Program-made: the position numbers and the translations under genes
DNA from: Bilabrum cf. latius
Taxonomy: Eukaryota
Assembly: GCA_965178125.1 (NCBI GenBank)
Contig: OZ237739.1
Location: 930,001 to 994,000 of the forward strand
Direction: 5' to 3'
DNA length: 64,000 nucleotides
Notes under the pieces: model-generated
Told to the model about the DNA's origin: nothing
The model's database searches: none
Seen by the model: only the letters and a program-made list of their open reading frames with translations
Part shown: positions 17,601 to 52,112 of the stretch, piece after piece
How the letters are laid out: the number at the start of each line of letters is the position of its first letter
Position numbering within the stretch: the first letter of the stretch is position 1

Positions 17601-20600
17601 CCGCTCATGCAAGCTACGTCCATTGTGAGAGCAGAGGAGGTGCTTAGCGGGCTGCGTGACATGAAGCGTGTGGTAGTAGACAACTATGGCTTTATTCACC
17701 AGACGCTGCCGAAGGACCCTAGCATCGTCAAGGAGGTGACCAGCCTGGGCCGGGGTGCCTCTCGCGCGCCTGCCGTGTCGAGTGCGGGGGTGCTGGAGCT
17801 GAGGGCCGAAAACCCGGCCACTGTTGCTGCCGCGCATGCGTCTCGCCAGCTGCTAGCGCTTGGGCAATCGATTCCATCCAACCTCCTCCATAGCCTCAAA
17901 GTTCCAAACCTTAAATGGGGTTTGGAGCGCGCTCTTGTAATGACCGTTGGGTAGCAGGACACTCGAGGTACCAAGAGCAGCCGGTAGCAGCGGCAGTCCT
18001 AGCTGCAATCAAGCAGCAACGGTCGCAATGAAGAAACAGGGCACGGGGCCGATATTCGTCAGTATCAGCGAGTGAGGTCGCGATCGGGCGGTAGAGGAAC
18101 TGCGAGATGGGTGGACCGAACGTAGGCTACTCCAATTCGAGTAACGGGCGTCGTACCAAGGATTATGAACAATGGTAGTATAGCGAGAGTTGTGCCTGCA
18201 GATCGCATCACCAACCATAGCAGCAGCTATGGCAATGCTTCATCGGCTGGTCAGTCCGACAGCAGTGGGCCCTTCCAGATGATGCTAACGCGTCGAATTT
18301 AGAACATGTCCAAGGTCGGTAGCGTGGCGGAGTCGTTGCATGAGTCCATAGCGATCAGACCGGAGACTATCGCAGCTGAAACTCCTTCCGTATTCAGCGC
18401 TGCCCACATGGACATCCAGCCCACATCACTTCACGTGATGCTGCAGTAGCCTGGTCTGGTATCGTTAGCATCCTTGTTTCTACTCCTCTCCTACTTGGGT
18501 AGGATTGCCCGAATGGAGGCGGTGCATATGAGTAGCATTATGGATGCAGATAGCTCGTTCTATGAGCTGCCGTCGTGGCGGCTAGGCCTTCCGGCTATTG
18601 TCGTGTCACTGGGAATGGTAGTTTCATCTCTTGGCTTGATGTCCCTGCTCAAAGGCTGCACGTCGACAATCGGGTGCGTGCGACTAGTCGACAGTGAGAT
18701 ACCGACCTCTTCAACCCTCACCTGGGCCTACCTGTCCGCGTACGTTGGACTGTTTGCAGTGCATACTGCATGCATGTCCGCAATTCTGGCGAATGAGACG
18801 GATGGATGCGTCCATTACCGATCACTGGACGGATTCATTGAAGGCTTCACTCTCTCTACGCTGTTTGTGGTGGGCTGCTTTCACGCGTATGAGATCCACG
18901 GTTGGATGAGGATCAGCTCGTCAATCCGAGCCTTGGAGCTGGGCTGCATTGTCTTGCTCGGGGTAGCTCAATGCTGGTGGTATGGATCAAGCGGGGGTGC
19001 CGTCGGTCTCATTAGTCCGGACAATGCAACTTCCTGCGTTGCTCGACTCGATCCAAGGTAGTCGACCACTGGAAGTACCGAACTTGTTTGGCTTGCAGTA
19101 CGGATTTTCTTCATGGGTCTCATGATATTTAGCGTGCGAGACGAACGGCTCAACCTCGTTTGGACCATGCGAGAGAACATTCTGACCTACCTGGAACTGG
19201 CATCGGTGAAACTGGTTGACCGCGCCAAGAGCATGGACAAAGTGCTGCGTCGAATGCTTCCCACCAAGCTCAGAGATGCGATCCTGGAGGCTGGCACAAG
19301 AGTGGTGCCATCTTCGTCTGCCACCGACACTAGCTCCTCAAATGTGTCAGCGCAGAGCGCAGACCGCTTGGAGCATGGTCAACCACGCGGCAGCAGCAAC
19401 GGAGGCCCGCGTGCACTGGGACGACCAACACCCGCAGCTAGGCCTGGCGCTGGCAAGCCCGAGTCACTTCAAATTGCTCGAGACCCCGCAGATACTGCCA
19501 GTATGGTCAGCTTTGCGCCGGGACTGGGCAAGGCTAGCTCCAGCAACACCACGAGCGCAGCACCAAGCGGGACTATCGTGCAAGCGCAGTCTGCTATTCG
19601 ATCGGTAGACGACGTTTGCATCCTTGTTGTTCGATTCAAGACTCCTGCGATTCTCAGCTCGCTGGTCGATTCTGTCGAGTTGGTGCGAGTGATGCGACTG
19701 CTTGGAGAGACGGTGGAGACGTGCTGCACTCGGAGGGGAGGTAGGAGGGTATCTTTCCATTCGTTCAAGATGATCTTTGCCTTCGGGCTGCGGCCGCAAG
19801 ACGATGACGATTTCCTTGAATCCTTCGTAAAGCGAGCCTTGCTTGCGGCTAGTGACAGTTTACGCAGTCTGCAGCAGCTGGCAGAGGCTTCCGGTCTGGT
19901 CCTTGCCGCATCTGTTGCAATCCACTCCGGGGAGGTGTAGCTGGGCCTGATGGACGTGCCCGGTTCGTCGTGGGAGGTACATGGCGAGGTGGTGGAAAAC
20001 TGCGAAGAGCTCGCCACGAAGGCCGTGCTACGTCTAGGTGGAGCGATCGGATCAGTTCTCTCCATTTCAGAGGCAGCCATCAAGGCACTGGCTGGCGCGC
20101 AGCAGAGAATCGTGATGCAGGCGCTCTCGCATGCCATCCGACCTTCCTCTCTGCATACTGCAGGAACCAACGACGCTCCATCCTCATCACATAAACGAGG
20201 TGCACCTGCGAGAAGCCACCTCTTCGAGATTGATGAGACAAGCACGGTGGACACTACCAAGCGCGGGACTGCAAGACCGGCTGCCTCGTCCACGTTTTCT
20301 CGGGGCAGCCAATCAATTCGAAGGCCAAGGAAGGGCCGCAAGCCGAAAAAGGCCCCGGCCATGCCGTAGCAAGCAACAAGCGCTGCGCGTGATCACATGG
20401 ACGAAAGGAGTGAAGTTTCGCTTACTTCTCCATTGGGTTCCTCAGCTCTTCGACAATCCGCAAAACAAGGTCGTGGAGGCAGGCATCACGCCCGGGTTCC
20501 GCTTCGACATAACGTTCAGAACATGTGGGGTGGGCAAGAGAAGCCACGAGCAGGGAACGGAAATAGGGAAGATTCTGTAGCAACCGACAGCTCGATGGCG

Positions 20601-23600
20601 ACTGGAGGGCGTCGCAGGAAGAGGAAACTAGGAAAGGGCGAAAAATCAGCGACAACACCGCAGGGAACCGTGGCTGGCAGGGTCCTGAGGTAGTTTGACT
20701 CGGGAGCTACCAGAGGGTCCGTTATGATGAAGACGCCCGTTCTTGGTCGCAAAAAGACGGGCTCGTCTGTAAATCGCCGCCACAGAGCCTCCATTCACGT
20801 CACCTATCTCCCCATTCGACTCGCGATCCGCGGGTACGGTCAGGTCTGGTCCGAGCAAGTGCACCTGCAGATCGAGGCGGCGTGCTGCGTGTCGCACAGA
20901 GCACCGTCTACGCTGGGGACGAAATCGAAGGAGAGGTTGCGATTGTCTGGCGTCGGGCCAAGTGAGCGGATAACAGAAGCATTGGGAGAGACTAACACGA
21001 GTGGCCACTGGACAACGTCCCAAAGCCAGCAGGACCGAAGAGGCAATGTACGAAATGTCACAACCCTACCGACCTTGGCTAGCGGCTCCAAAGAAGTTCC
21101 GAAGCGGGTATCATCTCGCTGGCCTTTCTTGATGCTAGCTAGACTCAAACGGCTTAGGCTCTTGGGAAGCGGTGGTTTCGGCGACGTGTACGAGGCCGTA
21201 GATGTAATGGGAGGCAAGCATTACGCCCTGAAGCAGGTGAGAACACGATTATCAGAATAAATGAGCCAGACTTTCCCCCCATAATTGACTTGCAAGCTAC
21301 CTGATATGTGCATCTATGGTAACCTTAAGTTCCCAAAGTTGTTAAAATTCTTGTTCTAGTCTCTTGTCCTTGCAGTTCAAGAAAGAAACGGTCCAGCGGG
21401 AGGAAGTCAGGAACGAGATCACTGCCCTGAGCATCATACCCAAGCACCCGGGCATCATGCGCCTGGCAGTGTGCGTTGCCTTGCCGTCCAGCATCAACAT
21501 CGTGACAGAACTCGTGGACGGCGTGTCCCTGGACAACGTGATTTCCAGCCGGCAGCGCATGTCAGAGCCTGCTGTGCAGATTGTGGTGGCAGAGCTTGTG
21601 TCGGCCATGGAACGCATCCACATGTGCGGCCTCGTTCACAGGGACATAAAACCCGAGAACGTGATGGTGACCAGCGCTGCTTCCGGCGCACACATGAAGG
21701 TGCTAGACTTTGGCCTCGCAGAGCGGGTCGATCCGCCTTAGCAGACAATTGAATCGGGTAGCGTAGCGACAGGCGGAATTGCAGCGTCCGCTGGAGGTGG
21801 TGGAAGTGCAGAGACCCAGTTCAGCGTGTCGCCTGCCATGGACGGTGCTCGAACGAGAATCACCAGCGAGTGGAGCATCCAGCACAAGTCTGAAGGCCTT
21901 TTCCGACACATGTATTCGCTCAGCCCGTGCATTTCCTTTGGGGCTGCCGCAGTTCGCCTGGCTTCCATTGGGAGTGGCTCTAGTAGCAATCCGACTAGAA
22001 AGGAGACGAGTGATGAAATCGCGAGCAGCATTGACGAAGACAGCGTGACAGGGCTAGCATCGCCAGTTCTGCACAAGCGCGTGCGCAACCACCCCATGCT
22101 CATGGCAGTTAGCCTGCTCGTGCTAGACGCGACGCTAGTCCAGGACGTGGACAAGCTTGGTATTGCACGCAGAGGTGCTTCTGCCAGGCGGGGAGCAGCT
22201 AGGTGGCGGTCTCAACAGCAGCAGGGGCTGCTCGCGGGAGGGAGCCGAAAGTCAAGCACGACCTCTGGCGAGATAACGTCAGACAGCGACCAGAGCACTG
22301 ATTCAGAAGCGATTGGCACGTCATCTTCATCTAGGTACATGGGACCCCCTTCAGCTCAGTTGCGGGCTTCTCCCGTACTTGTCGATGTGGAACGCGGTGC
22401 CGTTGACTCTGACGAGAGCAAGTGCTTGTTGGGTCCAATGGCTGATAAGGCGGGGCAGCACACTGACGTATTTGGCTGCATTGATGCTGATCTGAGGCTT
22501 GGCCCAAGCCTGGTTAGGAGCAGCGATGCGCTTCGAGATGCTTTCGTGAAGGATCAGAACGTAATTGACATGTGCGTGGCGACCGATGTCGACTCGGTTG
22601 ACTTCGCCTGCGGAGTTGCCGCCGACATCGCGCACCACTTCCGGAAATGCAAGGAACAGATCAGCCGCATGAGTTTCTATGCCGCCGACAAGTACATGTC
22701 CAAGGCCCGGAAAGTGGGTTCAATCAAGCATAGCGGGGGCCTAATACCGAGCAAAGTGGGCACGGCTGGTGCAGCTACCCTTACGAAGGCAAGTACGTCC
22801 GCAAACGTGGGATCTTTCGCGATGACACCCACGCGATAGTCTGCTGGTGTGAATGGAACCACGACGTGGCAGCGTGGCAGCCACAGCAGCGTCAAGGATG
22901 GCAAGATGAATGGTACTCTCGCTCCTGGTACCAGCCGCAGCGAGGTGCAGACGCCCAATGGGACGAACGGTGGCGATGCTAGCACGGTGGTCACCGTTGA
23001 CACCTCTAAGGATCCGGACGTGTCTGTAGCACCATTAGGAGAGGCAGGCATCTCCTCTGCTGAGACGAGTGGTCAGGCTGCACATGAAATGCTGCTTACA
23101 AAGGCTCGTATAGTGCAAAAGGAGGAGATGAGCTTCCTACTCCCGCGAGTTGCCATCTTTGCTGCCGACGGCGTGTCGGCCGACGTCGTGCGTACCATGG
23201 CTGACTCCGTGGCTGCCATCTTACCGGGTGCAATTGTGTTACCGCAGCGAAGCCTAGTATAGGATTTGTACCACAAAGTACTGTCGCACTCGTTCGGGCG
23301 CGCAGCACGCTGGCTTGCTTTCGAGGAGCAATCCAAGTTTGGCCTTCAGTCAATGCTCGACGTGCCGCAGTGGCCCGGGCACTTCTTCGGATACACCACT
23401 GCTGGATTTTCAGAGCTGGTTGCAAGACGGACTCTGGCCGGCCAGCCAAATCTAGAGGGACCTGGTGGTACACTCGCTGCATCTCAGGCCAGCCACGGCG
23501 CAGAAGGCTCGTTGCTGGAAGGCATTCCTGAAATAACAGCATCCTTGGCTGGAGGTGCATCGGCCAGCGGACAGATCGCGCACGCCGCCATTGCTCGCCC

Positions 23601-24603
23601 CACCGCAAGCTCCACCTCGTCCAAGACAACCGTGTCGCGGGCAACCGCCGCTCACTCGCAGGGCGGGGCCCCCTTCGTCCACGCCAACAAGCAAGCGCAC
23701 TCCCACAGGAGGACACATGGCAGCGGCACCAACGGTGGGAATACCAGCAGCACTCCGTCCTCTGCTGAACAGCAAGGAGGCATCATGCTGGCGAGCTCAG
23801 ATACAGCAGAGGCCCACCGCCCCATGCGCGCGTTTGAAGCCTTGCTGCTTCGGATGCCACCCATCGATGTGCTGGGTACCCTGACAGGAGGGGGGCGGCA
23901 GCCAAGCTCCAATGCCCACGGCATGCCGTCCATGGCAGCAGCGGCCGAGTTGGAGGAGGCCTTCCAGTCTCCTATTCTGGTAAAGAGGCGCGAGGTGGCC
24001 GATGGGACGGCTGGCACTCCTCACTACATCGCTCCCGAAACTGCCGCGGGCGGTGGAGCGGGCTGCTCGGCTGATTGGTACAGCATCGGGGTGCTTGCTT
24101 TCAAGTGCGTCGCGGGCCGCGTGCCGTACGACGGTCGCGACTTCCGCAGCATTTTCGACAAGGCAAAAGCGGGCGATATTCGCTGGAACCTGTTGCCGAG
24201 CGACACCTCGCCGGCTCTGCTAGACCTGCTCTCAAGGCTGTTGGACCGCGACCCCGCTCGCAGGATGCGGTCCGTGGGCCCCATCCGAAACCACCCGTTT
24301 TTCTCTGGAGTGGATTGGGACATGCTGTACCGCCGGCCATCCCCCCTCGCGGACCAGCACACCCACGTGCTCCCACCGAACCGGGATGGAACGTTCGCTA
24401 CATTGCGAGAGGCCGTGGAAGCCGTCAACCATGCAAGGTAGGGCGTGGCGGCAGCCAAGCAAGCGGCGCAAGTTGGGCCCGACGGTCGACCTGTGTATCC
24501 CGAATCGAGGCTCAGCTACCTGTTGCCGTGGAAGCGTCCGAGGGCTGCCAACGACAGCGCACCAGCTTCTGGGGCAGGGAAGCACGGCGGAGGCCCTGTG
24601 TGA
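14688..24603 (+). CDS. Multi-TM protein with two degenerate class III nucleotidyl-cyclase-like domains fused to a split AGC-type Ser/Thr kinase (exons 14688-14763, 14875-15316, 15404-21236, 21376-24603; ~3,190 aa)
   Basis: Kinase motifs [25 protein letters not shown] (21706), GTPHYIAPE (24013), [16 protein letters not shown]. Cyclase-like '[29 protein letters not shown]' and 'VAIHSGEV[TAG][12 protein letters not shown]'. Over 20 in-frame TAG; ends in TGA. The first exon and start are less certain. Confidence 0.75.
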
Positions 24604-36682: not shown

Positions 36683-39600
36683 ATGTCGTTGTAGCTTGGT
36701 GATAGAGTCCGGGTCCTTCCTCCTAAAGGCTCGGTGGAGCCCAGCGTGAGTTATTCAGCTCGGCCTTGCTGCATCACCCAGACATCGGATGGTCTTGTTG
36801 ACAGCTACATTGCATTATGTAAGCCTCGCTCCCTCCAATTGTCTCGCAGGATTCTCTTGGGGATGTAGGTGTGGTCACTGAAGTGCCGAAGTCACCTTCT
36901 GAACATTATTGCGTGCGTCTTCGCACTGCTGGAAGCCAGTCTGGCGAAGATCACATCGCAAAATTAAAATTTGATCGTCTGTAGCGCCTTAGCCCAGACC
37001 TGCGCGGGACTGATGCCGAAGGAGGCGATTCGGCTGCAGCCAGCTCTGATGCATCCGCCGTCGCACTGCGGGCCCCGAAAGGAGCTTCGAAATTGGGAAG
37101 GAGGCAGCGGTCGAACTCGCAAGCCTCTTCCGGATCTCGTGGCAGCAGAAGCCGCAGAGCCTCCGTGGACCGCACATCTCGGCATGCGAGGGAGGAGGCG
37201 CCGCCTGGAGGCGGCCGTGGTGCTGGTTCCGCTGGCGCCGCGAGAGGGGCACCCGGCGGATCAGGCTCTGCCCAAGCAGCTGCTAGTGGCGCCGTGAAAT
37301 CTGGGACTGCTGGCCTGGGCAAAGCCGGAAGCGGTGGCAAGGCAGCGAAAGCTGGTAGCGGTCGTGGCTCCGGGGATGATGGCGGGGACGACGATGACGA
37401 GGACGAGGACACGACCCCCGAACAGCGCAAAGCCAGGCAGCAGATCGGCAGTCTGGTGAAAGTCACCAAGGGTGACCGACAGGGCCAGGTCGGCTTCATC
37501 GAAAAGGCGCACCCTGGTGACGACGGGCGCTGGCTGGTCTTCACTGTGAGGCTGGGCGGTGAAAGGGTGAGGCTTCACAAGAGGGTCTTCAGGCACACGA
37601 GCAAACATGGAGACCTGCAGGCAGCCCTAGACGCATCCGCCGCCGCTGGTTCGGTTGATGGTCCTTCAATTCAAAGCCCGTCGTCGGGGGCAGCCCACTC
37701 CCCCAAGCATGCCAGGCAGGGTGGCATCATGAATGGGAGGAATGTGGCGGACAGTGGTGGTGCACTGTCTGCTGCCTCTTCCTCGTCATCTTCGGCAGCC
37801 GCTGAGAGTGCTCCGCAGCCATCAGCTGGCGCATCGGCACCAGCCGAGCGTATGAGCACGAGCTCTGGCAGCTCGGGCCGTCCACAGCCAGTTGAAGACC
37901 CCAGCAATCCTGCCATGTCAGCGGCAGAAGCTGAGGCCGCATCGCTCCGCCTTGCTGCGGAGCTGCAGGCAATGGAAAGGCGTACGTCAGGAAGGAGACG
38001 AAGGACGGCCCACCGCTCCGGAGACGGCATGTCGGGCTCCCTCGCAGGCAGCACCGACGCAGGGGATGCCCGGTCTGTCAGCACGGCGGGGACGAGGATC
38101 GACGCGGCGGACCGGGCATCCGTCCTTGGGGCGCAACCAGCTGATGACCGATCGGTGGCGGCTGCAGCTGGTGGAGCCGCCACACTGCCAAGAGGGCCGG
38201 AATCGAGCAGCGGCGGCACGAGCCGGGCAGAGGCCCCCCACGCCAAGCCAAGCAAACCTAAGGCACCAGATAGCGCTGCGAAATCTAAGGTCCGATCCGG
38301 CGATGGAGCAGCTCCAAAACTTTCCGCCGCAGCCAGCCAGAAGTCTGCCAGAGTAAAAGACAGGAAGCGTGCTCTCACGGGAGACCAGTGGATCGGGCAA
38401 CAAGTCGCTGTGGTAAGCACTGGGCAGGAAGGCAGAGTCACAGGCAGCGGGCACGGCTTTTTCCACGTGGAATTTGCTGATGGCACCGCAAGGAAGTTCC
38501 GCAAGGCCCAGCTTTCTGTAGTTGGAGACATAGAGGCTGCTGCTTCCAAGCCACCTCACGCGAGCAAGGCCAAGCAGGCCAGCCAGCAGTCCAGCAAAGC
38601 ATCAAAGTCGAAGCAAACAGAGCCTTCAGGCAAGAACCGGTCGAAGGGCTCGCGCGCTGCGTCATCTTCAAGCTCAGCTACAGACGCTTTGGCAGGATCA
38701 GACACCGCTGCCGGGGAAGCCCCGCCCGCACACTCAGGCAAAGGGCTAACTTCGAGCGGTAGGAACACTCCGAAGCGCCGAGAGAGCCTTGAGGGAGCCG
38801 AAATGGTCGCCAAAATGGCCCTGAAGTCTGCTGGAGACTCCAAAGCGGGCGGCGCGGGGTCCAGGCTCCGCAGTCGGCTCGCGGCTCTGGGTGAAGGGGT
38901 GCAGCAGGAGCTGTCGAGGAAGTCCAGGGCTGGCTCTCTCACCGACGCTGGCCAGAATAGCCACTCTGAGGCGCCTTCGAACGCTGCTGGGGGTACAAGT
39001 GACAATGACGATAATGATGGTGATGGTGATGGCAATGAAGACTAGTAGCGAGACACTGCCGACGTGGCGATTGCTGCCCCGCCAGTACCGGACCGCCCTG
39101 CTGCTGCGTCCAGGTCAAAGTCAAAGAAGGGCAAGCATGGTTCCTCTAAGCGCCGCAAGGGGGGTAAGGGAGGCACCTCTAGCAAGCAATCTGCCAATCC
39201 GCCCCAAGGACTCAGAAGTGAAGCCGAGGCGCAGGCTCAGTCAAGTGCTGTTGAGCCTTCGTCAAACAGGCCCAACCTTCGAATCCAGGCAGACGGGTGG
39301 CAGTCAGAGGACTCTTCTGCAGCAGAAGCAAGTGGGAGCTCGGCTACAGATACACCAGCAGCTGCAAAGACTCCGAAAACGCCGCTGGCGACCGACGCTG
39401 CCAGAGGTGGTCGCAAGCGGCCTCGGCGTGCTGCAGCTGTGAGTGCCTCCCAGGCGCTGGCGGGGCAAACCCCGATGGCGGATGAGAACGGGGAGGATGA
39501 AGAATAGCTGCCGCTGGCAACAGGTGCGAGGGGTGCTTTGAAGCAACCAAGTGCCGCGGTCCGTCAGTCTAGCGGCTACGGGTCGATCGGAGGGCAGCAG

Positions 39601-42600
39601 GCTCAGCGGTCGCTCATGCAAAAGATGGGCGGACAGGGCGCGGCGCGAGCCGTATCTGCCGGCAGCAGAGTGGCTCGCCAGCCTTCGGTCACGATACAGC
39701 CGATTGCGACCACCTTCGATGCGCCTAGTGCGTCGTCGGGCCGGCAATCTGCCTAGAGGAGCGCATCGCAGAGGTCTCGCTCTGATGCTGCACCGCTGCC
39801 GCCTACCACTCCAGCGACCGTGTACGCCAACAGCGATGATGAGACTAGCTACGGCAGGGATGCGGAGGCATCGTCACAGAGCAGTCGCAAGCGCCGGCGG
39901 ATGGAGAGGGAGAGGCGCGCGATGGCTCGTGCCACCGACCAGGGCGTGGCCCGGGTGAACAAGATGCTGGCACACCAGGAACGAATTCGGCAGGCGGTGC
40001 AGCGCGCTAAAGATTGGTACGCCAAGGAAGGACGTCCCAACATCGGACACTTCAAGAGGAGGCTTGACCTGCCCTCGCTGGACGAGCTCTAGGTGGACTT
40101 TGAGGACTGGAAGCTGGAGGCAGGGGAGGCAGTGGCTGCCGCTAGGGAGGTCGTGGCGGAGCAAGTCGCTGCCCTCGAGGCGGAGGGAGTAGCCATTGGG
40201 CTGCGCGAGCTGTCCAGCGATGACATTTCCTAGCAGCACGGCTCGAGCAACCCCGATGACCCACTTGCAGACCCCGTGTCTCTGGTTCGCGTCGCGTCCT
40301 TGATGGAGCCTCAGGACGCGCTCGACGTGGGAACCCCCACACCCAAGACGCCGTCCAAGGCAGCGGTTGGGGGTGTGCAGAGGAAGCACAAGGCATACGG
40401 CGGGGCGCTCAAGGGGCCTCTGCCACCCATAGTGCCTGAGCTCGCATCGTCCTCGTCACAGCGGTCTGCCTCTGGTGTGTCGGCTGTGCTATCCCGGCTG
40501 GGGGCGCACTAGAAAGAGGTGTGGCTGCAGCGCCGGAGTACTATCATCCACAGCGCCGTCGCTGCTGCTGAGGCCGCAGCCCTATCCGCCTGCCTATCGA
40601 TGCGCTCTACGGGCTACTAGCCCGGTGAGTATGCAATTTCATGCGCGCAGTAGGAAGCAGTGAAGCCAGCGCTGAAAGCGGCCGAAACCGCCGCCCGCGC
40701 GGTTCTGCTAGGCCAAGGAGCGGTTGATATGCTTTACGGACCAGAGGCTGCAAGGAGCTTGATGTCACTTCCAAGGGAAGTGGCCGTCGATGGCTATGCG
40801 TACAGTCATGGGCGCAAATCCGACCCGGCTTCGCGGGGTTAGGGGGCCATGGAAGGCATGGCTGGACCTGACGGGATTGCCTCGTTACTGCAGACTGCGG
40901 TCGCACCGAGCGTGCTGACCCATACGCTCCGAGGCTGCGGCTGGACTCCTCGGTTTGCTGACGACGATGAGGCTGCGCAGGCGGCTGAGGCCGTTGGTGG
41001 GCAGGAACCCACCGACCGAGAGATCGCAAAGGTGGCCAAACAAGCGCGAGCGATGGACGTGTATGGGGCGCGATCTGCTAGCGCAATCCATTCTGAGGTG
41101 CTGCGCACCCGCCTACAGAGGTACAACGACACGGTCGTGGGTTCTGCTGTCGCGCCTCTGTTGGAGGAGCCCTCTGCCAAGGGCAGTGATAATGATGAGG
41201 GCGGAGATGGCGACGGCGAGGATGATGACCCAGTCGAGCCGACCGCCACCATCCAACCAGTAGCGCTCGCCATCGATCTTGCCAGCGGGGAGGGCCGCCC
41301 CAGAGACCCGTTCGCCACGGATCCCATCACGGCCACGGGCGCGCCCCAGTTCGCTTCCCTTACAGAGGCACTCCTGGCAGCCGATACGGCGAATGCCGTC
41401 AACCGCCCGACAAAGCCTGTGATGCACTGGCGGCTGGGCAGCCATCGACTAGACCGCGCAATCGCCCTCGCCCGCGGAATCCCGCTGGCGGAGGAGGACG
41501 CTTCGTCCGACGAAGAGGATAGCGATGAAGAGGTGCACGATCCAAGAGAGAACCCGCTCCATGCTTTGGGCGATTCTTCAAACGGTAGCAGCACAACCTC
41601 GCCCGGCGGCGCCAAGGTGCCTGCCTCAACGCTGAGTGCCAAGCACTTTGGAGCAGCTGCATCTCGTCACTCCGACCGCAGCAGCCACGGACTGAAGGAC
41701 GTGCCGTGGCACGTGTGGCAGCGGCATGCGAGAGGAAAGAAGGGTTACGGCGCCGTCAGCCGCTGGGATGAGACCTGGCAGTACAAGCAAGGTGAGCGAC
41801 CAGCTTTGGAGCCGGGCTCGGAACCTTGGGTATTTGGTGCCAGGCCGCTGGGAACAGCAGGCGAGTACCTGGCCTTAGCGGCTGCGCAGGAGCGAGCAGC
41901 CCTCCACCAGGGCAGGAAGCGACTGCGGGCCTAGCACGGCGGGCTTCCGTCGGCTGGAGGTATGCTTCCTGCCGCAGATGCAGAGGAACTCTCTCCTCTG
42001 CAGGCTGAGGCCGACGCTGTCGCGCACCTTGACGACGGCGAGCTGGATCGCCAGGCGCCTGAACGAGGCACCGCTCCGGCCCTGACGCCTGCTGCTGCGG
42101 GACCTCTAGGCAGCGATCCTTTCGGAGTGCACGGCGCTGATGCGTTCGGAGGGGCGGCAAAATCTAGGGAGAGAGACTGGAACACTCTCCCGACGATGGG
42201 GGCTCCTTCGCTCGCAGGAGCCCAGTGCGCGGCGTGCGGATTCCAAAAGGAGACCGAGACTGACCATTGCTGGAATGAGGACTGCCCGCTGTGCCCCCTC
42301 TCCTCGAACAGAGGAGAGGCTGCAGCAGCCACGGCGCAGACCACATCGGGGCCAGAAGCAGTTGCCGGTGCAAAGTCACAGGTAGGCAGCGCTGGGCTCC
42401 GCGCCTTTGCTGCAGCTGTTGCGGCTGCTGAGGCCTGGGAGCCAGTCGAGCCGTCTTCCGCCCCACCCAAGAAGACCAAGGGCAGGCGTAGAGGCAGCAG
42501 CGCCTCGGACAATGGCATGTCCTCTGGCCGATCCACGCGAAACAGCGAGCAAGGGAGAGCAAATGCGGCACGACAGGCGGCCGCTCACGTCCTTGCGCAG

Positions 42601-45600
42601 ATCGGTGCGGCGGGTGCCGGCAAAGCTGCGGCAGACATGCTGGTGTCCATGGGACCCCAGGCAGGCTCGAAGAATGCCACTCGGCAGAATGAAGGCTGGA
42701 CTTATGGTGTGGTCGGCGGCTAGGCGGTTGATGCTGGGCTGCACACGGAAAGTGGCGGCGCGGTAGCCACGTCAACAAGCGGTACTGACGCTTCTGCGGA
42801 GCCCACCGGAGGGTCATCGTTGCCGGGCGACCGGGGTGCTGCTGCTGATGCCTCTCGCATGGACACCAGCTGGGCCTATGCTCTAGTGCAAGCTGCCAGC
42901 GGGCTGGAGGTCAGGCACGCTTCTCTGGCCGCGCTGGCCGCTGCCACCGCCCGCGTGCTGTCATCCGAGCTGACACATGGCACTGCAGCGGAGGCTGGCA
43001 TCACCGCGTGCACCACGAGGCAGCCAGGCGCCGCTACCGAATCCAAGGAAAGCGAACCCGAGGCAGGGAAGTCCGATCACAAGAGCTGCGCGGCGAGCAC
43101 GCCGGCTGCGAGCAGGTGCGCGGGCCTGCTTGCATCGCTGGGACTCAAGGGGCACCAAGCTGCCGCGCTTGCAACCCGATTGGGATCCAGCGTATCGCAG
43201 GGGATGGGGGCGGCGATCGCGCTCGAGGCTCTGCTGGACTCTCGGACTGCGTGCGAGCTAGCGGGTGTGACGTGTGGTGATGCGAGAGCGTGGTGGGTGA
43301 GGGAACAGGAGCGGCCCGATCTCGAGCTCGACCTCAAGGCCAGCGTGCATGGAGGTGCGGCATGGGCGCGAACGGCAGGTGGGGCGTGGAGGGCCAAGCT
43401 GCCTGCCGGCGAATCAGCTGCCCTCGCCGCTCTCACTGTGCCGCGGCGCCGGCTGCGTGGCCAGCCGATGCTGGAGGGTTGGAGGCCGGTCGTATCGGAT
43501 GCTGCGCTGAAGCAGCTTGACAAGGAGGAGGAAGATGCTGTGCGAGGGAGACACGGCCGCATATCGGCAGGCGCGACGGATGCGCCGCCCGCCGCCGGGA
43601 CCAAGCGATCTAGAGAGCAAAGAGACGCAGAAGCGCAGCAGGCCTCGGAGGATCGCGTTGCGGGCATTCTCGGCGACCTGCCATCGGTTGCCCGCACCCA
43701 CCGGCGAGGGACAGTGAGGCCGCGGCTCATGCAGCACGCCGAGTGGGTCGCGGTGGATGAGGCCTGCAGGGACGTGTTCGCGCGGGAATACGATTACGCC
43801 GCTACGCACAACGGCGGTTGCCCGGCTCCTCCGCTGCTGCACAGCACCAGAGACGGTATCGTGGACGAGCTCTGGGAAAGGCGCCGGGGTGCCCTTGCTG
43901 AGGGTCCTGCTGGTGCTTCGCAACCATTCGGCACAGCTGGGCAGAGCGCCAGCGCCAAGGCCTCGTCTGGAGGCAGTGCGCCGCTCTCATCATCCTGGGA
44001 ACATGTTTCTCTGGGCCTCCCTGAGACCAGCGTGCCTCACCGCGGCGATGCCGTTGATGAACTCAAGGCAAGCGATGGGGGACTGGCCAGCGCGCCCCCA
44101 AGCGGCGTGGTCATCCCCGTCGCCAACTCGAGGGAGGCCTCTCTCCTGATATGGGAAGGCGGCGCGAGCCTGTCGGCAGAGAGAAAGGATGGAAGCGCCG
44201 TACGTGCGCCGGCCGGGTCCACCACGATGCGAAAAGCGGACCGACACGAAGATGCTGGCGTGGCGGTGGCAGACGACCTGCGAAGGGACCCGCTAGCCAT
44301 GAGACCAGGACCGGTCACGGTGCTGCCATCCTTCCATGAAGTAAGGCGGCAGGTCTTCCGACGCGCCGTGACAGCGCTGCGGATTACAAGGCTGCAGCAC
44401 GGCTGGGCCGTGCAGCAGTGCTTGACGGAAGGACAGCCCCTGCCTAGCTGCCCGTACAGGACTGTGGAGCCAGAGCACATCCGTTTCCGAGAATGGGCGG
44501 AGCTGGCCGTCCGTAGGGCCGCCAAGGCCGGATCGATCCCTGCGGGTACTGTTCGAGATGCTGTCGCGAAGGCTGCTGGTTCCGTCGCTTTGCCGTGGAG
44601 CACCTCGTCATAGAGCAACGATTCCGGCACAGCAAGAGGCCGAGGGGCTGCCACTGATGGGAGCTTCGAACGTGTCTTGGAGTCATTTCGGGCGTGGATG
44701 GTGATCGGCCCGCCACCAGAGAGTGATGACGAGGACGGCTTGCCCGAGCCCGTCTGGAACGACGGTGCCGGAGAGGACCTGCCGTCACGACCTGACTGCG
44801 AGGTCTACGCCAGGCACGCCCCGCCGCCCGACCTGTCCTACATTCGGGCTGCCATCTGGGGCTTGCCTCTCCCTGTGCACTCTTTGCTGACGCTGCCGCA
44901 GTCGCAGGGCGGATTCGGCTGGAAGGCACCGGCAGCTGCAACGGCAACTGGACTTGGGTCTGGAAGCAGCGCCCGGCGGAGCCCAAGTCCCACTATCGGC
45001 GAAGACGACATGGCTGCAAAGGCCCTTGTTGGTGTCATGAGCGACCGCACCATGGCCAGGCGACGCACGCAGGGGTGGTCCAACAGCTCGGTGCACCCCT
45101 TGGCTGGCTTCGCGAACGTGATGCTAGGAGATGCAGGTGACTCGGGCAGCGCATCCTCCTCGAGCACGGCGGACGGGCAACCCTCCAGCGTGTTTGACAA
45201 GCAGGAAGCCGCAGGTGACCTGTTGTCGCCTCGGGCAGCCTTCGTGGCGATGAAGCAGGCGAGCGCGCCGGCGCATGACGCTGATTTCGGCGACCTCCTG
45301 GCACCCCTGCTTGAGATGCGGCTGCCGTTGGCTGCTCCTGCGCTCCCCGGCCACATGCACTTCTTCCTGCGGCCCACTGAGGCCCAGCTGACGGCCTTCA
45401 GCTCATCCAACAAGGGCATTCGGAAGCTGCTTCAGCGCCTGCCGCCCCCATTCTCTGGAGCGAGCGCGCTGGCGTCTGCGTCAGCGCCCGAAGCAGCCGC
45501 GTTTCACGGGCCCCCAGGCAGATACAGGCCAGGAACGAAGGCCAGGCCTCTGCAGGGCTTGGTACCGCAACCGCCGGCGCACGCCGCCCTTGCCGCTGGG

Positions 45601-48384
45601 CACGATCCTGCGGGCGGCCCAATGACGGTGCTATCTGTGCCCCGTGGAACTGTCAAGTCTTCGAGAGCGGCGCAGCACGGCGGGCCGCGCGGCATCCCGC
45701 CTACTGCTCACGCTGCAGCTGCGGCCTCCCTGGTGCTGGCCTCTGAGGCTGCGGCTGCTGCTGAGCGGGCCGGCCTCACGCTGACCAAAGATGATGACTC
45801 GCTCTCAATGCTGCCGGACAACCCCCGCTATGTAGCGGCTGCTCAAGCCGGCCACGTTGGCGGTGGTCCCGCCGTGACTCCGCAGCAGAGCTCGCAGCTG
45901 CTCCGGGCCGCGAGGCAGCAGGCAGAGCAGCTCCACGAAGAGTACCAGATTACGATGATACCCACACTGCAGGATGGCTCGAGCAACCCTCATTACGACC
46001 CCTCTCGCCGGCTGCCCAGGCCCCGCCAGCCGCTCGAGGTGCTGGAGGAGGAGGCAGCAAAAGCAGTTACGAACGATTTTTCCGGCGTGCCGCGTGGTCA
46101 TCAGCGCAGTCATCAGCGCGAGAATCAGACGTGGACTGGGGGACGACTCGAGCCAGACGCGAGCAGCGACCCGCTGGGCGGAGGTCTTTCGGTGCTGCAT
46201 GTCGCTGCAGGTGAGACACCCGGACCGGATGGTGGTACGCAAGACTCGGATGGCAGCAGCACCGATGGAGCCAATCCAAAGAACGGACATGGCAGCGACA
46301 CTCGCGTTGCCCTGCTGCATGCCCGTCTTCTGGAGGCCCAGAATGCGGATCGCCAAGAAGTAGGCTCCGACCGGCAGACAAGCTCCAACTCGTCCGCATC
46401 TCGCCTGCCGGCGTCAAGCTCATCTAGTGCTAGCAGCGCGAACGCGTCAGCCAAAGCAGCGTCACACCCAGTAGCAAGTGCACTTGCACCGCAGTAGGAT
46501 GCAATCATGTCTTGGGGCCGGGGCTAGCCGGAGCGTGCTCACTTCAACCTACTGGGTGCAGGTTTAACGCGTGTGTATGCCCCCGAGGCTTCAAGAAACG
46601 GCTTTGAAGTTTCGAAAGTTCTTCAGGATACCGACGCGGATGGGTCAGTTGGGTCGCCCAGGCTAAACGGGCGGAGTAACTCTGATACCCGCAGCTACTC
46701 TAGCTCTGCTTCTGGACCGTCAGACCTAGCTGCAGAATCGGCACGGCGCTTGCGAGGCATGCAGGATGCCGCGCGGCTGCCGGGGAACGGCGCGGGGACA
46801 GGCGCCAACAGCGCCGTCTCGCGACTCGCGATCGACGCTCCGGTCCACGTGCTCGGCTCACAGCGAGCACCTAGAGACCCGTGGCACCCCTCTGCGGCTG
46901 GGCGTACGACGGTACCGTTCGTCCTCCCTTTCAAGCCCGAGCTGCCTGCTGCCTTGCAGGAGCTGCCGGCCATGCCTGCGCTGCTCAAGGATGACTCCAA
47001 CGTGGATCCCTCCATCATGCTCTCTTACGCAAGGACAAAGTACGGCAGCTCCGGTGCGGAGCTTCGGGCCCTCCACAAGCGCATCACTGAACGAGCAGGG
47101 AGGAGGCACGGGCGGAGACAAGCCCGGTCGCCGGAGTACTTTGACGCCGAGCAGCGTCAGGACGAAACGCTCTCCGGAGGGGCACCGGGGCACCCCACAG
47201 CGAGCCTGACTACCCCTGCGGCGGCTGGAGCCGTGGCTGGCAGCGGGGTCGGGGTGGATGCAGCTGGTGGATTGTCGGGTGCCTCGTTGTCTGCCCGTGG
47301 CACGGGTGAGGGACCGGTGTCTTCGGACGGGCATGGCACTGGCGAGGGTTGGCTGGGCCGGCATGTGCGCTCGTGGGCATCGGAAATCGATGCTGTGAAT
47401 CGGCATGGCATTGAAATCGCGCTGTCTGCGTCAGAAGAAAGCACCAAGGGGGGCGGCGGGAGTGGCGCTGCGGCGTCCTCGTCTGCGTCTGCGTCTGTGT
47501 CCTCGTCATCTGCCAGAGGCAGAGAGCAATTGGTGGCAGGGCTGGACTTGCCTCACCCTGATGAGGCCGCAGCGGCCCTGTTGCTTGCAACCAGCCGGAA
47601 GGAGCTTTCTTTGGAAGAGGCCACGGTGTCCAGGCAGGGTGCACTCGATCTCCTGGCGGAAGGGCACGCAAGGGGGCTCAAGAAGTTTCTCAAGGAGTGC
47701 AGGAAGCGGCGCAGGGCATCCATGCTGTCTGAGGCAGAGGACGTTGAGGGCAGCGCCGCGTTTAAGAAGAGTGGCAGTGGTGCGGGTGGGGACAAGGGCG
47801 AGGGTCCGCCCAGCAAGAAGGCGAGGTCTAGCTCCGAAAAGAGCGGGTAGACGAACAGAAACTCCTCGCAAATACCCGAGAGGGATGCGGGCATACCCAG
47901 TGAGGTCGGGAACGGCGTGGACGGTGGTGGAAGGCTCGCAAGCGAGGGCAAGGCCCAAGTTACAGGAGGCGTGGAGGAGGACGACACCCCAGAAGACAAA
48001 GGGTTCGAGGAGATGTCCAACAATGCGGCTCGTGGGGCCCCGCCCGGGTGGATAACCACCGCGGATGACCACGGCGAGGCCAAGCACTACTTTTTCCCGG
48101 GCGATGGGACTCGCGTGTGCACCTTGTCCGAGGGGCCCCACGCCTTTGTTCTTCGCATGCCTGCAATCCAAGACCCCGAGGTGGAGGAGGGTCCTCCTTA
48201 GGATCACGATGTGGATGCTGGAGTAGCTCGCGCCAGTGCAGAAGCCTAGGCTCGATTCCTGCGTGAGCGGTAGGTGCCGCAAGATGGAACCATGGGCAGC
48301 GCTGCGTCTGCGATGTCGTACGGCTTTCAAACGGGTGCGCTTCAACCGGGGCAAGGCAACGAGCAAATGCATAGATTCGGGTGA
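36683..48384 (+). CDS. Giant low-complexity protein with KOW/SH3-like motifs, Cys4-type cluster and C-terminal WW-like motif (exons 36683-36745, 36850-48384; ~3,865 aa)
   Basis: 'L[TAG]LGDRVRV', 'IGSLVKVTKGDRQGQVGFIE', 'WIGQQVAVVSTGQEGRVTGSGHGFFHVEF', 'CAACG...CWNEDCPLCP', 'PPGWITTADDHGEAKHYFF'. An 11.5-kb exon is interrupted only by ~20 TAG. Ends in TGA at 48382, which overlaps a possible GTGAG donor. Confidence 0.75.
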
Positions 48385-49279: not shown

Positions 49280-50950
49280 ATGGGCTGCTTGACGTCTTGC
49301 TCCGTCCAACTGCAACTGAATCACTGCAGGCAACAAACACCTGACGTAGGCACCTGCTTTGCTAGAGCATACTTCGGTGATGTAGATTATTTGGCCAAGC
49401 GCGCGGAAACATCCTTGATTTCGTTGTGCAGTCAGGTGCCGTGCAGAAACGTGCGTGATGTGAGATCGTTCCAAGGGCGACGTACTAGTCGAGCAGCAGA
49501 ACTACAAACAAGGCATTTCGTACATAATCGAGTTTATTTGATCTAAATAGAGACTGTAGGCGGAATTAAATATCTTTGAATAACTCCGCAGAGCACGTGG
49601 ACGGTGATCCACTTAGCATGCTTGAAGGGGCGCCTAGCTGTCGTTAAGCTGCTCCTTCAGACACGATTTGGGACTTTTTTGGCCAACAAAACTTCTGCGG
49701 TGAGTGTTTACATTGCAGCGATCCGCTGCCCGTGCAGCAACAAGCGGCACTACAGGTGAATTCTCTGCATTTCCATTCGTTGCGGTGGTGCGTCTAGCTG
49801 CTTTGTATAACATACAACGCCCCATTGCAGCGAGGTCTTTCGCCTGCCATGCTGTGCTGCCATGCGGGTCACTCCGACTGCTTGCGGGAGCTGATCGGAG
49901 CCGGAGCTGACCTGATGCTGTCGAAGGATGTGAGCTCCTTGCGAGGGATTCGTTGAACCAACTTGCTTGAACAGCGGTGTCAGCCATCTTGCTATTTCGT
50001 TGAAAGCATTACCTAGCGATGTTAGCAGAACGGATTTACTGCGCTGTGTTATGCGGCCAGAGCTGGACACCTGGACTGCATGCGCATGGTCGTAGAGCAA
50101 GCCTGGCGAGCTGGAGCTTTACGCGTGAGACATGATACAAGGGAATTTTTTTTTTGACACGGTCGTGTGCACAGGAAGATGTATCTGCGAGCAGCATTTC
50201 TGCCTGCTGTATACAGTCTAATCTGCGCAGCCCAGGCCGGCCGGTGTGCCGGAACCAGCGAGAGCCTACAGCGTGGCTGTAGCTGGGGGTCCGAATGCAA
50301 GAGTTGGCGGGTGGCAGTCCAGCTAGATCGCAGAGCAGCTAGTCACCGCCGTAGTGGATACCATTGAATACAACCAGCCGCACTGCATGGCATACCTTCT
50401 CGGCCTCGGCCTCGATGGAATCCTCGAGCTTGAGCTCGTCAGGAAAGCGCTGGTAGATGCGAACGACTCTCTGCGTGGAAGCTCCTCATACCGGTGGCAC
50501 AGGTATGCCAATCACAGGGGCATTATCATCGCCCATCGGCTCATGCAAGCCTACCGCATCATGCCAAAGCTAAAATAGGTGAAGGGCGCTCGGGGGCGGC
50601 ACGCGCTCTTCTTGAATCTGCTGTTTGAGCACGGCAGGCTTGCCAAGATGAGGCGCGTGTGGTACCTAAAGCGGAGGGGAAAGCTGTCCATGGCGCGATG
50701 GAGGCGAACTGTCGAGGCCAAGAGAGACGCTGGCATGGTATTTCAGGCCGCAAGCGAGGGCAGACCAATGGAGCTGGCCAAGCGGCTCAGGCTGGGCGTG
50801 CTGGCGGGCGGCTTGGACACTCGGGGTCATGTCAAGGGCACTGGTATGAAAACTCCGCTGGAAGCTGCTCGTCTAGGGGATCATCATGAGTGCGTCATTT
50901 TGCTCGAGTAGGCTGCGAAGAGGCATTCGGGCGCAGCAGGGGTTGAGTAA
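49280..50950 (+). CDS. Ankyrin-repeat protein, 5 exons (49280-49459, 49592-49699, 49831-49929, 50029-50124, 50231-50950; ~400 aa)
   Basis: Exons encode TWTVIHLACLKGRLAVVKLLL, GLSPAMLCCHAGHSDCLRELIGAGAD, GFTALCYAARAGHLDCMRMVV and KTPLEAARLGDHHECVILLE. All introns are GTGAG...GCAG, phase 0. Ends in TAA. The 5' end (MGCLTS) is tentative. Confidence 0.75.
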
Positions 50951-51035: not shown

Positions 51036-52112
51036 TCACATCGTGATGTTTTCATGATCATCGCGAGGGTGCGCAGCTGATGGCAGGGCGGTCTGGTCGG
51101 CCGCCCTGATAGCGTCGAGAGGGTTGCGCTAGTGGTGCTCCTCGCCTGTCTCCCTGATAGCGTCGAGAGGGTTGCGCTGGTGGTGCTCCTCGCCTGTCTC
51201 CCTGATAGCGTCGAGAGGGTTGCGCTGGTGGTGCTCCTCGCCTGTCTCCCTGCCCAGCACCGCCGCCCGGCCCTCTTGGCCGCAACCGAGTTCAGCAAAA
51301 GTGGGCGCGTGCAAGGGGCTAGTTGTTGGTGCGCCCTCGATAACCCCCCCTGTCGGAACCACGGTCTGCTGCTGCTGCTCACCAGTTGATGCCGTGGCGG
51401 TGATGGCATCACGCGGCGCTCCACCGGAACCAGCGTCCCCTAGCTCTCCGCCCGCCGCTCCATCTGCTGCTACCCCCTTTGGCTCCTCAGGGTCCTCGTG
51501 CAGCGCCTGAAATCGGAACAGCCACGCGTCGACCGAGAGATCAACTAGGGCCTAGAGGGCACCGACCACTGCGATGCCAGCGCTGCCACTGCGCACCGCA
51601 GCGAAAATTGGGATGCCGATGGACTGCAGCCTGAAAGCAAACACGCCGACAAGCATGAATATAAAATCTCCGCTATCCTCAAACTCGCCGCAGTACGAGC
51701 CCATGTTGGGGATCCCAACATTCTGCCTCGTGCTGCTGCCGGCGAACCACAGCGCGTACAGACACACAGCAGGTCCTACGAATGGCAGCAACACCAACAC
51801 CAGTGACACTCCAAACCAAGTCTCGGACACCAAAGACGGGTGAATGCTTTGCAGTGCAAGGACTACAGTTCGCTTGTTGCCCCAACCGAAGATTCCAGAC
51901 CCGGCGATCAACGAGAATATCGTTGCCAGGAGCTCTTCTGGTCCACCGTTCTAAGCTGCCAGCGTCACTACAATGTAAAGCTGGCAAACAGAGTCAAAAA
52001 TGAATACCCAGCAATGCATCCAAAAAGCTGATTCATGGGTCATTTCGAGACATGCTGGTGCGGTTGCCGCACGGTTACCGATTTCTTCGTCCTGCATGTC
52101 GTGACCATGCAT
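51036..52112 (-). CDS. Hypothetical multipass membrane protein with repeat-containing C-tail (~358 aa)
   Basis: ORFs 51951-52157, 51552-51911 and 51129-51362 share one frame and are joined by TAG. Several hydrophobic segments; ends in TGA at 51036. Confidence 0.65.
51104..51252 (-). repeat. 3 x 48-bp coding tandem repeat (RETGEEHHQRNPLDAI); one copy has TAG in place of CAG
   Basis: Copies at 51104-51151, 51152-51199 and 51200-51247 are identical except +strand cta (51129-51131) versus ctg. Confidence 0.95.

Follow-up and report, generated by a model that had tools for sequence, protein, structure and literature searches.

The code in which UAG is read as glutamine while UAA and UGA remain stops (NCBI table 15) is rare, with reports from a few protists of unrelated groups: Iotanema spirale and the ciliates Hartmannula sinica, Trochilia petrani, and Protocruzia tuzeti (PMC11687900, PMC5304391, PMC10553269). 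UAA and UAG are nearly always reassigned together, and exceptions to this come mostly from transcriptomes or incomplete assemblies. I. spirale (Fornicata) shares all three codon meanings with the genome described here, and a tRNA with a CUA anticodon was predicted for it; it belongs to an unrelated lineage, and that study had neither a genome nor a tRNA available (PMC5304391). The phyllopharyngean ciliates H. sinica and T. petrani also use table 15, with TAG in 78–84% of their genes (PMC11687900). A screen of the MMETSP reported no further code changes among 265 non-ciliates (PMC4967479). A change of the nuclear code in a stramenopile was not found in the literature, in a search with most subscription journals and supplements outside its scope, nor by term searches of PMC11412368, PMC6723347, PMC6972860, and PMC11008856.

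Here we analyze a stretch of 64,000 nucleotides (the window), together with the genome it belongs to (48.6 Mb in 111 contigs, about 60% G+C). We find that in the nuclear genes of this genome TAG encodes glutamine and TAA and TGA are stops—i.e. that they follow table 15—and this held for all the regions covered. With high confidence, we take the window to be nuclear DNA of a protist, a single-celled, marine-type flagellate of probable bicosoecid affinity, under this code, decoded by a tRNA(CUA) in the presence of an altered eRF1, in which a C-to-T change in the third copy of a 48-bp coding repeat would be silent.

A 48-bp repeat with TAG in its third copy

The repeat spans 51104–51252 (TRF: period 48, 3.1 copies, 99% matches, score 291), and its copies read, on the minus strand, RETGEEHHQRNPLDAI. 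Copy 1 (51204..51251) carries the Gln codon CAG, copy 2 (51156..51203) has the same sequence, and copy 3 (51108..51155) has TAG replacing CAG, at 51131–51129. The base at 51131 is the sole mismatch in the 144 bases from 51251 to 51108, and past the copy-3 TAG the frame stays open for 30 codons, up to a TGA at 51038–51036. A sequence-only reading of this locus had described copies that differ at one base, with CAG, CAG, and TAG and a frame continuing to TGA, and was accurate in each of these respects. It had also named two outcomes that would count against it, reads with CAG in all three copies and a protein ending at the third repeat, and neither was encountered. One contig each from runs X1, X5, and X7, which come from three studies, carries the assembly base at 51131 without an alternative letter. 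The comparison covers 4 of 12 listed sequencing runs, all as assembled contigs, and X1 may be the source sample of the assembly. All three contigs terminate at 51161, leaving 30 letters to the right of 51131, one short of our bridging rule for contigs; a 31-mer graph would be expected to break exactly here, provided that uniqueness ends with the A at 51131. A 73-base X1 contig for 51180–51252 has a depth of 27.4, compared with 15–17 alongside, as expected for three copies.

That the CAG-to-TAG change is synonymous, as the sequence-only reading proposed, holds because TAG encodes Gln in this genome, according to the tests on other genes given below. Its further statement that the repeat needs no external alignment is too strong: by itself the repeat is little proof of the code, because a nonsense change shortening a low-complexity tail by 31 residues would look no different. 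The code therefore had to be tested on other genes. Similarly, the peptide ETGEEHHQR, put forward as a proteomic marker, is the same in all three copies and is therefore uninformative about read-through of copy 3; the peptide unique to the region downstream of copy 3 is AADQTALPSAAHPR. We infer from the code that the protein is read through copy 3.

A survey of the sequence examined yields 44 indel-free tandem repeats with a period divisible by three. TAG varies between copies in 9 of these, and in 3 of the 9 it lies in the longest open frame. Among the three, only the repeat at 51104–51252 pairs TAG with CAG; in the others its partners are Ser codons (TCG/TCA) and, in a frame that is only putatively coding, GAG. 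A poly-Ser microsatellite with an in-frame TAG (C23:907044–907080, L110) is a counter-example to inferring the meaning of a codon from one repeat. Alternative frames for the 51104–51252 repeat were rejected, as its plus-strand frames fall beyond the TAA of the neighboring gene and the frame that reads RETGEE has the best codon score of the six.

The gene that carries the repeat (51036..52112, minus strand) is an orphan present once in the genome, with 358 codons when TAG is read as Gln and a TGA stop at 51036..51038. Its product has five hydrophobic segments in residues ~34–200, a low-complexity linker, and three 16-residue repeats. Besides codon 328 in copy 3 (51129..51131), for which the base comes from the X1, X5, and X7 contigs and the Gln meaning from the dynein tests, it contains two upstream TAG codons that had escaped the earlier reading. 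At codon 187 (51552..51554), a relative probably has TAG as well, a codon deduced from its protein P0403 (95% identical), which ends immediately before that site. Codon 54 (51951..51953) is a variable site, with His and Tyr in the proteins of two relatives (P0404, P0405). An X5 contig spans 51223–52176 with no gap and no difference, and the upstream TAGs are therefore transcribed, outside introns, and unedited; X5 is not recorded as RNA, is judged RNA-derived from its GT..AG joints, and its contigs are unstranded. The codon score is +3.9 over the 30 codons before the TGA, i.e. weakly coding-like, and −5.7 over the 49 after it, i.e. UTR-like. In a relative that is ~90% alike (X8), the three indels listed within the gene are all multiples of three among the indels listed, and a 6-base deletion at 51052, in the tail after the copy-3 TAG, keeps the frame; by subtraction, X8 is ~66 bases shorter between its aligned pieces of the gene.

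The orphan gene matches no Pfam family (best PDB match E 0.37), has no relative among JGI metagenome contigs, and finds only two fragment matches among 1.84 billion representative proteins. A single-sequence fold has a mean pLDDT of 43.7 and is unusable. Our best guess for the product, at roughly even odds, is a multi-pass membrane protein confined to this lineage, whose flexible tail varies in repeat number.

Downstream lies a convergent neighbor (49280..50950, plus strand), which we take to be ankyrin-like by motif, with four GT..AG introns marked by X5 joints, three in-frame TAG codons, and a TAA end. Many other contigs match its segment 50724–50811, and it is therefore a member of a gene family. 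Its transcript contig (49280–51161) extends into the 3′ end of the minus-strand orphan gene, i.e. the X5 contig over 51131 is fused to the transcript of this neighbor, which suggests overlapping convergent transcripts. TAG occurs in all 14 window ORFs examined, the longest of which (37729..48384, plus strand; 3551 codons) has 19 TAG and ends with TGA. Elsewhere in the window, at 15405–24603 (plus strand), a cyclase-like/membrane ORF leads into a protein kinase, of which it holds only the first lobe; the remainder of the kinase is in the next ORF, past a 196-base gap that is probably an intron, and the domain is split by ~750 residues.

TAG as glutamine in other genes

The longest frame in the window is 750 codons under the standard code, 3853 when TAG is opened, 936 when TGA is opened, and again 750 when TAA is opened. 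Both strands together hold 415 TAA and 1045 TAG triplets. Two contigs supplied 264 kb with 50 nonoverlapping ORFs of at least 500 codons; TAG is present in 48 of these, and the Gln codons of the set comprise 327 TAG, 517 CAA, and 1836 CAG, a TAG share of 12% (327/2680).

The amino acid at TAG was tested on dynein heavy chains, nine of which were taken from 28 domain matches in the genome. Together they have 42,361 codons with 180 in-frame TAG, no TAA, and no TGA, and one of them has 60 TAG in 4618 codons. When dynein-2 is compared with 120 outside homologs, 56 of its 60 TAG codons (codon 1791 is one of the 60) can be scored, and Gln reaches +13.5 while the next amino acid has −37.4; as a control, 61 of 61 sense codons are decoded correctly. 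Among conserved columns, Gln stands at only 7 of 15 TAG positions, compared with 10 of 17 for CAG and 11 of 21 for CAA; the mean Gln frequency is 0.207 for TAG, 0.195 for CAA, and 0.193 for CAG. Tyr ranks 19th of 20 for TAG, and none of the 56 columns has 30% Tyr. Against the same homologs, the other eight dyneins (76 TAG) give Gln −22.5 and the next −75.2, a lead of 53 for a score that is negative in absolute terms, in a test whose control misread 1 of 61 codons (TGT). Comparing the nine paralogs with each other (109 TAG) gives Gln +15.2 and the next −49.5, a lead of 65 with no controls wrong.

Ends of genes are consistent with these meanings. The dyneins end with TGA (6) or TAA (3), all directly past the conserved C-terminal motif, and with eRF1 this makes 10 of 10 gene ends that are checkable against homologs. 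The 264-kb ORFs end with 38 TGA and 12 TAA, a count that excludes TAG ends by construction and in which some ends may be intronic. TAG positions are spread along genes, with 8 in the last 30 codons compared with 8.2 expected. Under a coding-score model trained on the same ORFs, the tails after the last TAG score 0.173 (5 of 46 negative) and those after the last CAA 0.163 (6 of 44), both well apart from UTRs, which score −0.173 with 44 of 50 negative. The context-dependent pattern of the Condylostoma and Blastocrithidia type, in which a codon is sense internally, stop terminally, and depleted before the stop, was not seen for TAG in the 264 kb and the dyneins. There, UAG is widespread and shows no sign of also being a terminator, although rare use at gene ends may occur.

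Relatives and transcripts also bear on the code. In X8, the TAG of the convergent neighbor at 50324..50326 (plus strand) is CAG; it is the sole in-frame TAG among 22 changed codons, in a comparison that covers 33 of the 40 differences listed. The eRF1 of another relative (L116, 82% identical) carries TAG at a CAG position of this genome, and its end is TGA in place of the TAA found here. Judging from these sequences, relatives share the code. TAG codons are kept in RNA-derived X5 contigs, with no letter change.

GC-rich housekeeping genes avoid TAG: PRP8 has 4 and GlnRS (C33, near 559.6 kb) 0 in the 751 codons seen, compared with 60 in dynein-2. PRP8 (L075, C24:232.6–241.0 kb) also has a lineage-specific N-terminal insertion of ~150 residues.

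Decoding of UAG and the ancestry of tRNA(CUA)

One tRNA gene carrying the anticodon CUA, present in a single copy, is found at C23:907607–907679 (minus strand), with an Rfam score of 69.8 bits and a clean cloverleaf; its ARAGORN label, "Pyl", reflects the anticodon only. The gene is intergenic, followed by a T run, and lies 106 bases from an ORF with 18 TAG. A pattern scan of the genome for CUA, GUA, and UUA anticodons, covering short-arm tRNAs that lack introns and have the usual T arm, gave nine matches, i.e. this tRNA, tRNA-Tyr, two mitochondrial tRNAs, and five non-CUA/UUA, and thus no second CUA tRNA and no UUA tRNA. The tRNA list itself is incomplete, with 63 of 780 candidates scored and no nuclear Leu, Asp, Trp, or His among them. 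A CUA anticodon pairs with UAG and not with UAA (PMC5304391), which explains the split between the two codons. We infer that the tRNA(CUA) is made and charged with Gln, and in this mechanism it would insert Gln at UAG while leaving UAA unread.

The second component would be a release factor that ceases to terminate at UAG. The eRF1 gene (C35), whose exon model rests on splice signals and homology, contains two TAG codons, one of them codon 73, and ends with TAA at the end of its homologs; if the exon model holds, eRF1 is itself unmakeable without read-through of UAG. We compared it with the 95 homologs of at least 400 residues, out of 120 listed. One TAG stands where 89 of 95 homologs have Gln, and the other at the equivalent of human Leu69 (Leu in 89 homologs, Gln in 6). 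In addition, TASNIKS has become TAVNIKS (Ser in 89 of 95), RGN has become KAD before an intact GTS, and the N domain departs from the consensus at many sites, while the GTS, NIKS, E55, S70, and YxCxxxF equivalents are retained. A second match to PF03463, the family to which pelota also belongs, is found on C20. The L69A change in eRF1 raises UAG read-through (PMC5304391). Gln69 is present in 6 of 95 homologs and is therefore insufficient alone for the loss of UAG reading, and the eRF1 changes seen in sequence may be what causes this loss. With both components in place, the repeat would have arisen by tandem duplication in the tail of the orphan gene, and a C-to-T transition in its third copy would have been silent and retained.

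Where the tRNA(CUA) came from is a separate matter. We compared it with 31 other distinct nuclear tRNAs at 57 fixed positions, and find 39 matches with Tyr, 36 and 35 with Ser, 34 with Gln(CUG), and 32 with Gln(UUG); a value of 39 is reached by 9 of 439 pairs of tRNAs for different amino acids. Over the acceptor and anticodon stems, a measure picked after the data were seen, it matches tRNA-Tyr at 20 of 24 positions, compared with a maximum of 17 over the 439 pairs. The acceptor positions match at 12 of 14, and C1:G72 occurs only in these two among the 32 distinct nuclear tRNAs. By contrast, its discriminator is G73 and not A73; G73 and the D stem (8 of 8) match Gln(UUG), the T arm is that of Ser, and the anticodon stem resembles the general Rfam consensus. 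C1:G72 and A73 are the eukaryotic Tyr determinants, A73 being one in all domains, and several E. coli amber suppressors derived from other tRNAs insert Gln, one of them via a change from A73 to G (PMC9976931). The closest tRNA of the genome is that for Tyr, rather than one for Gln as descent from tRNA-Gln(CUG) would suggest. A tentative scenario, to which we give rather less than even odds, is that a stramenopile lineage separated UAG from UAA by recruitment of a tRNA-Tyr, as an amber suppressor (G34 to C) that retained its acceptor stem and C1:G72, acquired G73 together with a Gln-type D stem, and came to be charged by GlnRS. If true, a natural switch of amino acid identity would be at the root of a nuclear code change, as opposed to the expected descent from tRNA-Gln(CUG), and in a GC-rich, TGA-terminating genome whose virophages use TAG for 43% of their Gln codons.

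Two further observations concern other tRNAs. Multi-copy tRNAs called Met(CAU) (L023, L033, L037, L045–L047) share almost the whole acceptor stem of tRNA-Pro(UGG), and several of them show C73 or an unusual anticodon loop; they are possibly a tRNA-derived repeat or another tRNA recruitment. Nuclear tRNA-Ile (L009, L042) has the anticodon GAU, while Ala, Thr, and Ser have A34 forms; AAU is the usual tRNA-Ile anticodon in eukaryotes.

Other accounts of the copy-3 TAG need to be weighed against this one. UAG could have two meanings, being Gln at most sites and a terminator close to transcript ends or through leaky competition with eRF1, in which case the protein may end at copy 3. The position of this TAG only 30 codons from the end, the weak coding score of the orphan-gene tail, and the intact eRF1 motifs are all in line with such an account; however, the checkable gene ends are without exception TGA or TAA, TAG is not depleted near ends, tails after TAG score like those after CAA, leaky stops would hardly allow the 4618-codon dynein with its 60 TAG to be completed, and the X8 deletion at 51052 preserves the frame of the tail, so that we give it a slim chance. 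Slimmer still is the prospect that TAG is partly Tyr or another residue, with TyrRS charging the Tyr-like tRNA(CUA) and Gln arriving via an unseen tRNA. The C1:G72 pair and acceptor likeness, the Tyr of one relative at codon 54, and the incomplete tRNA list would allow for it, yet Tyr has almost the lowest rank at dynein TAG sites and no column with 30% of it, the tRNA carries G73 in place of the Tyr determinant A73 (PMC9976931), aligned virophage codons show no TAG/TAY pairing, and the pattern scan found no second CUA tRNA.

Accounts that change the code itself fare worse. Under the standard code, the copy-3 TAG would be explained as a nonsense allele, as damage in a pseudogene, as a mistake of the assembly, or by mRNA editing to CAG. 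A single-base difference within a disordered tail does fit a tolerated nonsense change, and tandem repeats are prone to assembly error, but in-frame TAG occurs in 48 of 50 long ORFs, in eRF1, PRP8, and the dyneins, the base at 51131 recurs in three runs, and spliced X5 contigs are unchanged across many TAG. A ciliate-type code with both TAA and TAG as Gln (table 6) is the commoner change in eukaryotes and could accommodate the rarity of TAA in the window; against it, the 42,361 dynein codons contain no internal TAA, three dyneins and eRF1 terminate with TAA where their homologs end, TAA and TGA are swapped at the eRF1 end of L116, and a UUA tRNA was not found by the scan. We assign these last two codes a negligible probability, and regard both as refuted by the in-frame TAG, the absent internal TAA, and the TAA gene ends.

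Host lineage, virophages, and known codes

The best named matches of the genome are Cafeteria roenbergensis/burkhardae (eRF1 69%, dynein-2 36%). The eRF1 tree groups it with Cafeteria and a further clade (node 93/89, unstarred), and in the dynein tree it and Cafeteria sit on long branches close to the root and away from the remaining stramenopiles; no named bicosoecid is found among 120 cox1 matches. The mitochondrial contig (C111, L160–L163; 38,401 bases, 24% G+C) has its long genes, as far as seen, all on one strand, and reads UGA as Trp with a UCA tRNA, its genes ending with TAA; this is like Cafeteria and Cafileria, a supporting but not unique trait. On these sequence affinities, the host is very probably a bicosoecid stramenopile related to Cafeteria. 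The main 18S array, on C12, is divergent (1700 nt). A second, different 18S (C95:6099–7900, L051), which we take to be haptophyte-like, is on a 17.9-kb contig and is probably from prey, host culture, or contamination.

A family of protein-primed polymerases has 28 matches in the genome, 11 of them above the cut-off. Virophage-like elements with Sputnik-type capsid genes are located at C12:912–920 kb and 923.5–928 kb (L185, L186), C22:749–765 kb (L187, L188), and C27:613–622 kb (L189, L190). These three regions are islands of 25–45% G+C that match Sputnik-type major and minor capsid, primase, and GIY-YIG, and they are interrupted by GC-rich, retroelement-like stretches, one with an RT-like domain and one within a major capsid gene. 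The Gln codons of the 29 AT-rich ORFs in them comprise 183 TAG, 203 CAA, and 43 CAG, of which TAG amounts to 43%. In viral contigs, neither free relatives of two of the capsids nor a match to the tRNA(CUA) pattern were found. The virophages of Cafeteria burkhardae are likewise AT-rich, endogenous, and bear GC-rich retroelement insertions, but they resemble mavirus, in contrast to the capsids here with their matches to Sputnik-type Pfam models (PMC8547959). Integrated DNA viruses that use the changed code of their host are also described from Streblomastix strix, which differs in that TAA and TAG are both Gln, the host is an oxymonad, and the viruses belong to another group (PMC10120064). Gene calling under the standard code would make the endogenous virophages seem dead, and the lineage is a candidate kind of host for viruses that use UAG as Gln. 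Standard gene callers also fragment the genes of this lineage (P0403, P0404, P0242/P0243), hiding the code in databases.

Compared with the described users of table 15, this genome differs in the details of decoding. The eRF1 of I. spirale has T32G in GTS, while here GTS is intact and TAVNIKS, KAD, and Gln69 are found; its dominant stop is UAA, as opposed to the TGA that ends 38 of 50 long ORFs here; and a tRNA(CUA) descended from tRNA-Gln(CUG) was predicted for it, whereas ours is nearer to tRNA-Tyr (PMC5304391). In H. sinica as well as T. petrani, UAA is again the main stop and TAG makes up 18.5–31.8% of Gln codons, compared with 12% here. No dual meaning of TAG was found in that study, as here, and no suppressor tRNA was detected in either assembly (PMC11687900). 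The rhizarian exLh shares the split of UAG from UAA and a changed eRF1 Leu69, but reads UAG as Leu and has Ala at 69 (PMC5304391).

Closer to the host, C. burkhardae has an intron-poor, GC-rich genome and mitochondrial UGA as Trp, as here, but a size of 34–36 Mb and 70% G+C, compared with 48.6 Mb and about 60%; only its mitochondrial code is called nonstandard (PMC6972860, PMC8547959). A near-complete genome thus provides the tRNA gene, eRF1, GlnRS, and relatives with the same code, next to C. burkhardae, a named relative whose annotation uses the standard code, and the uncoupling of UAG from UAA is therefore directly testable. What we describe is a known code, table 15, in what appears to be a major lineage new to it, for which both the tRNA and the release factor are available.
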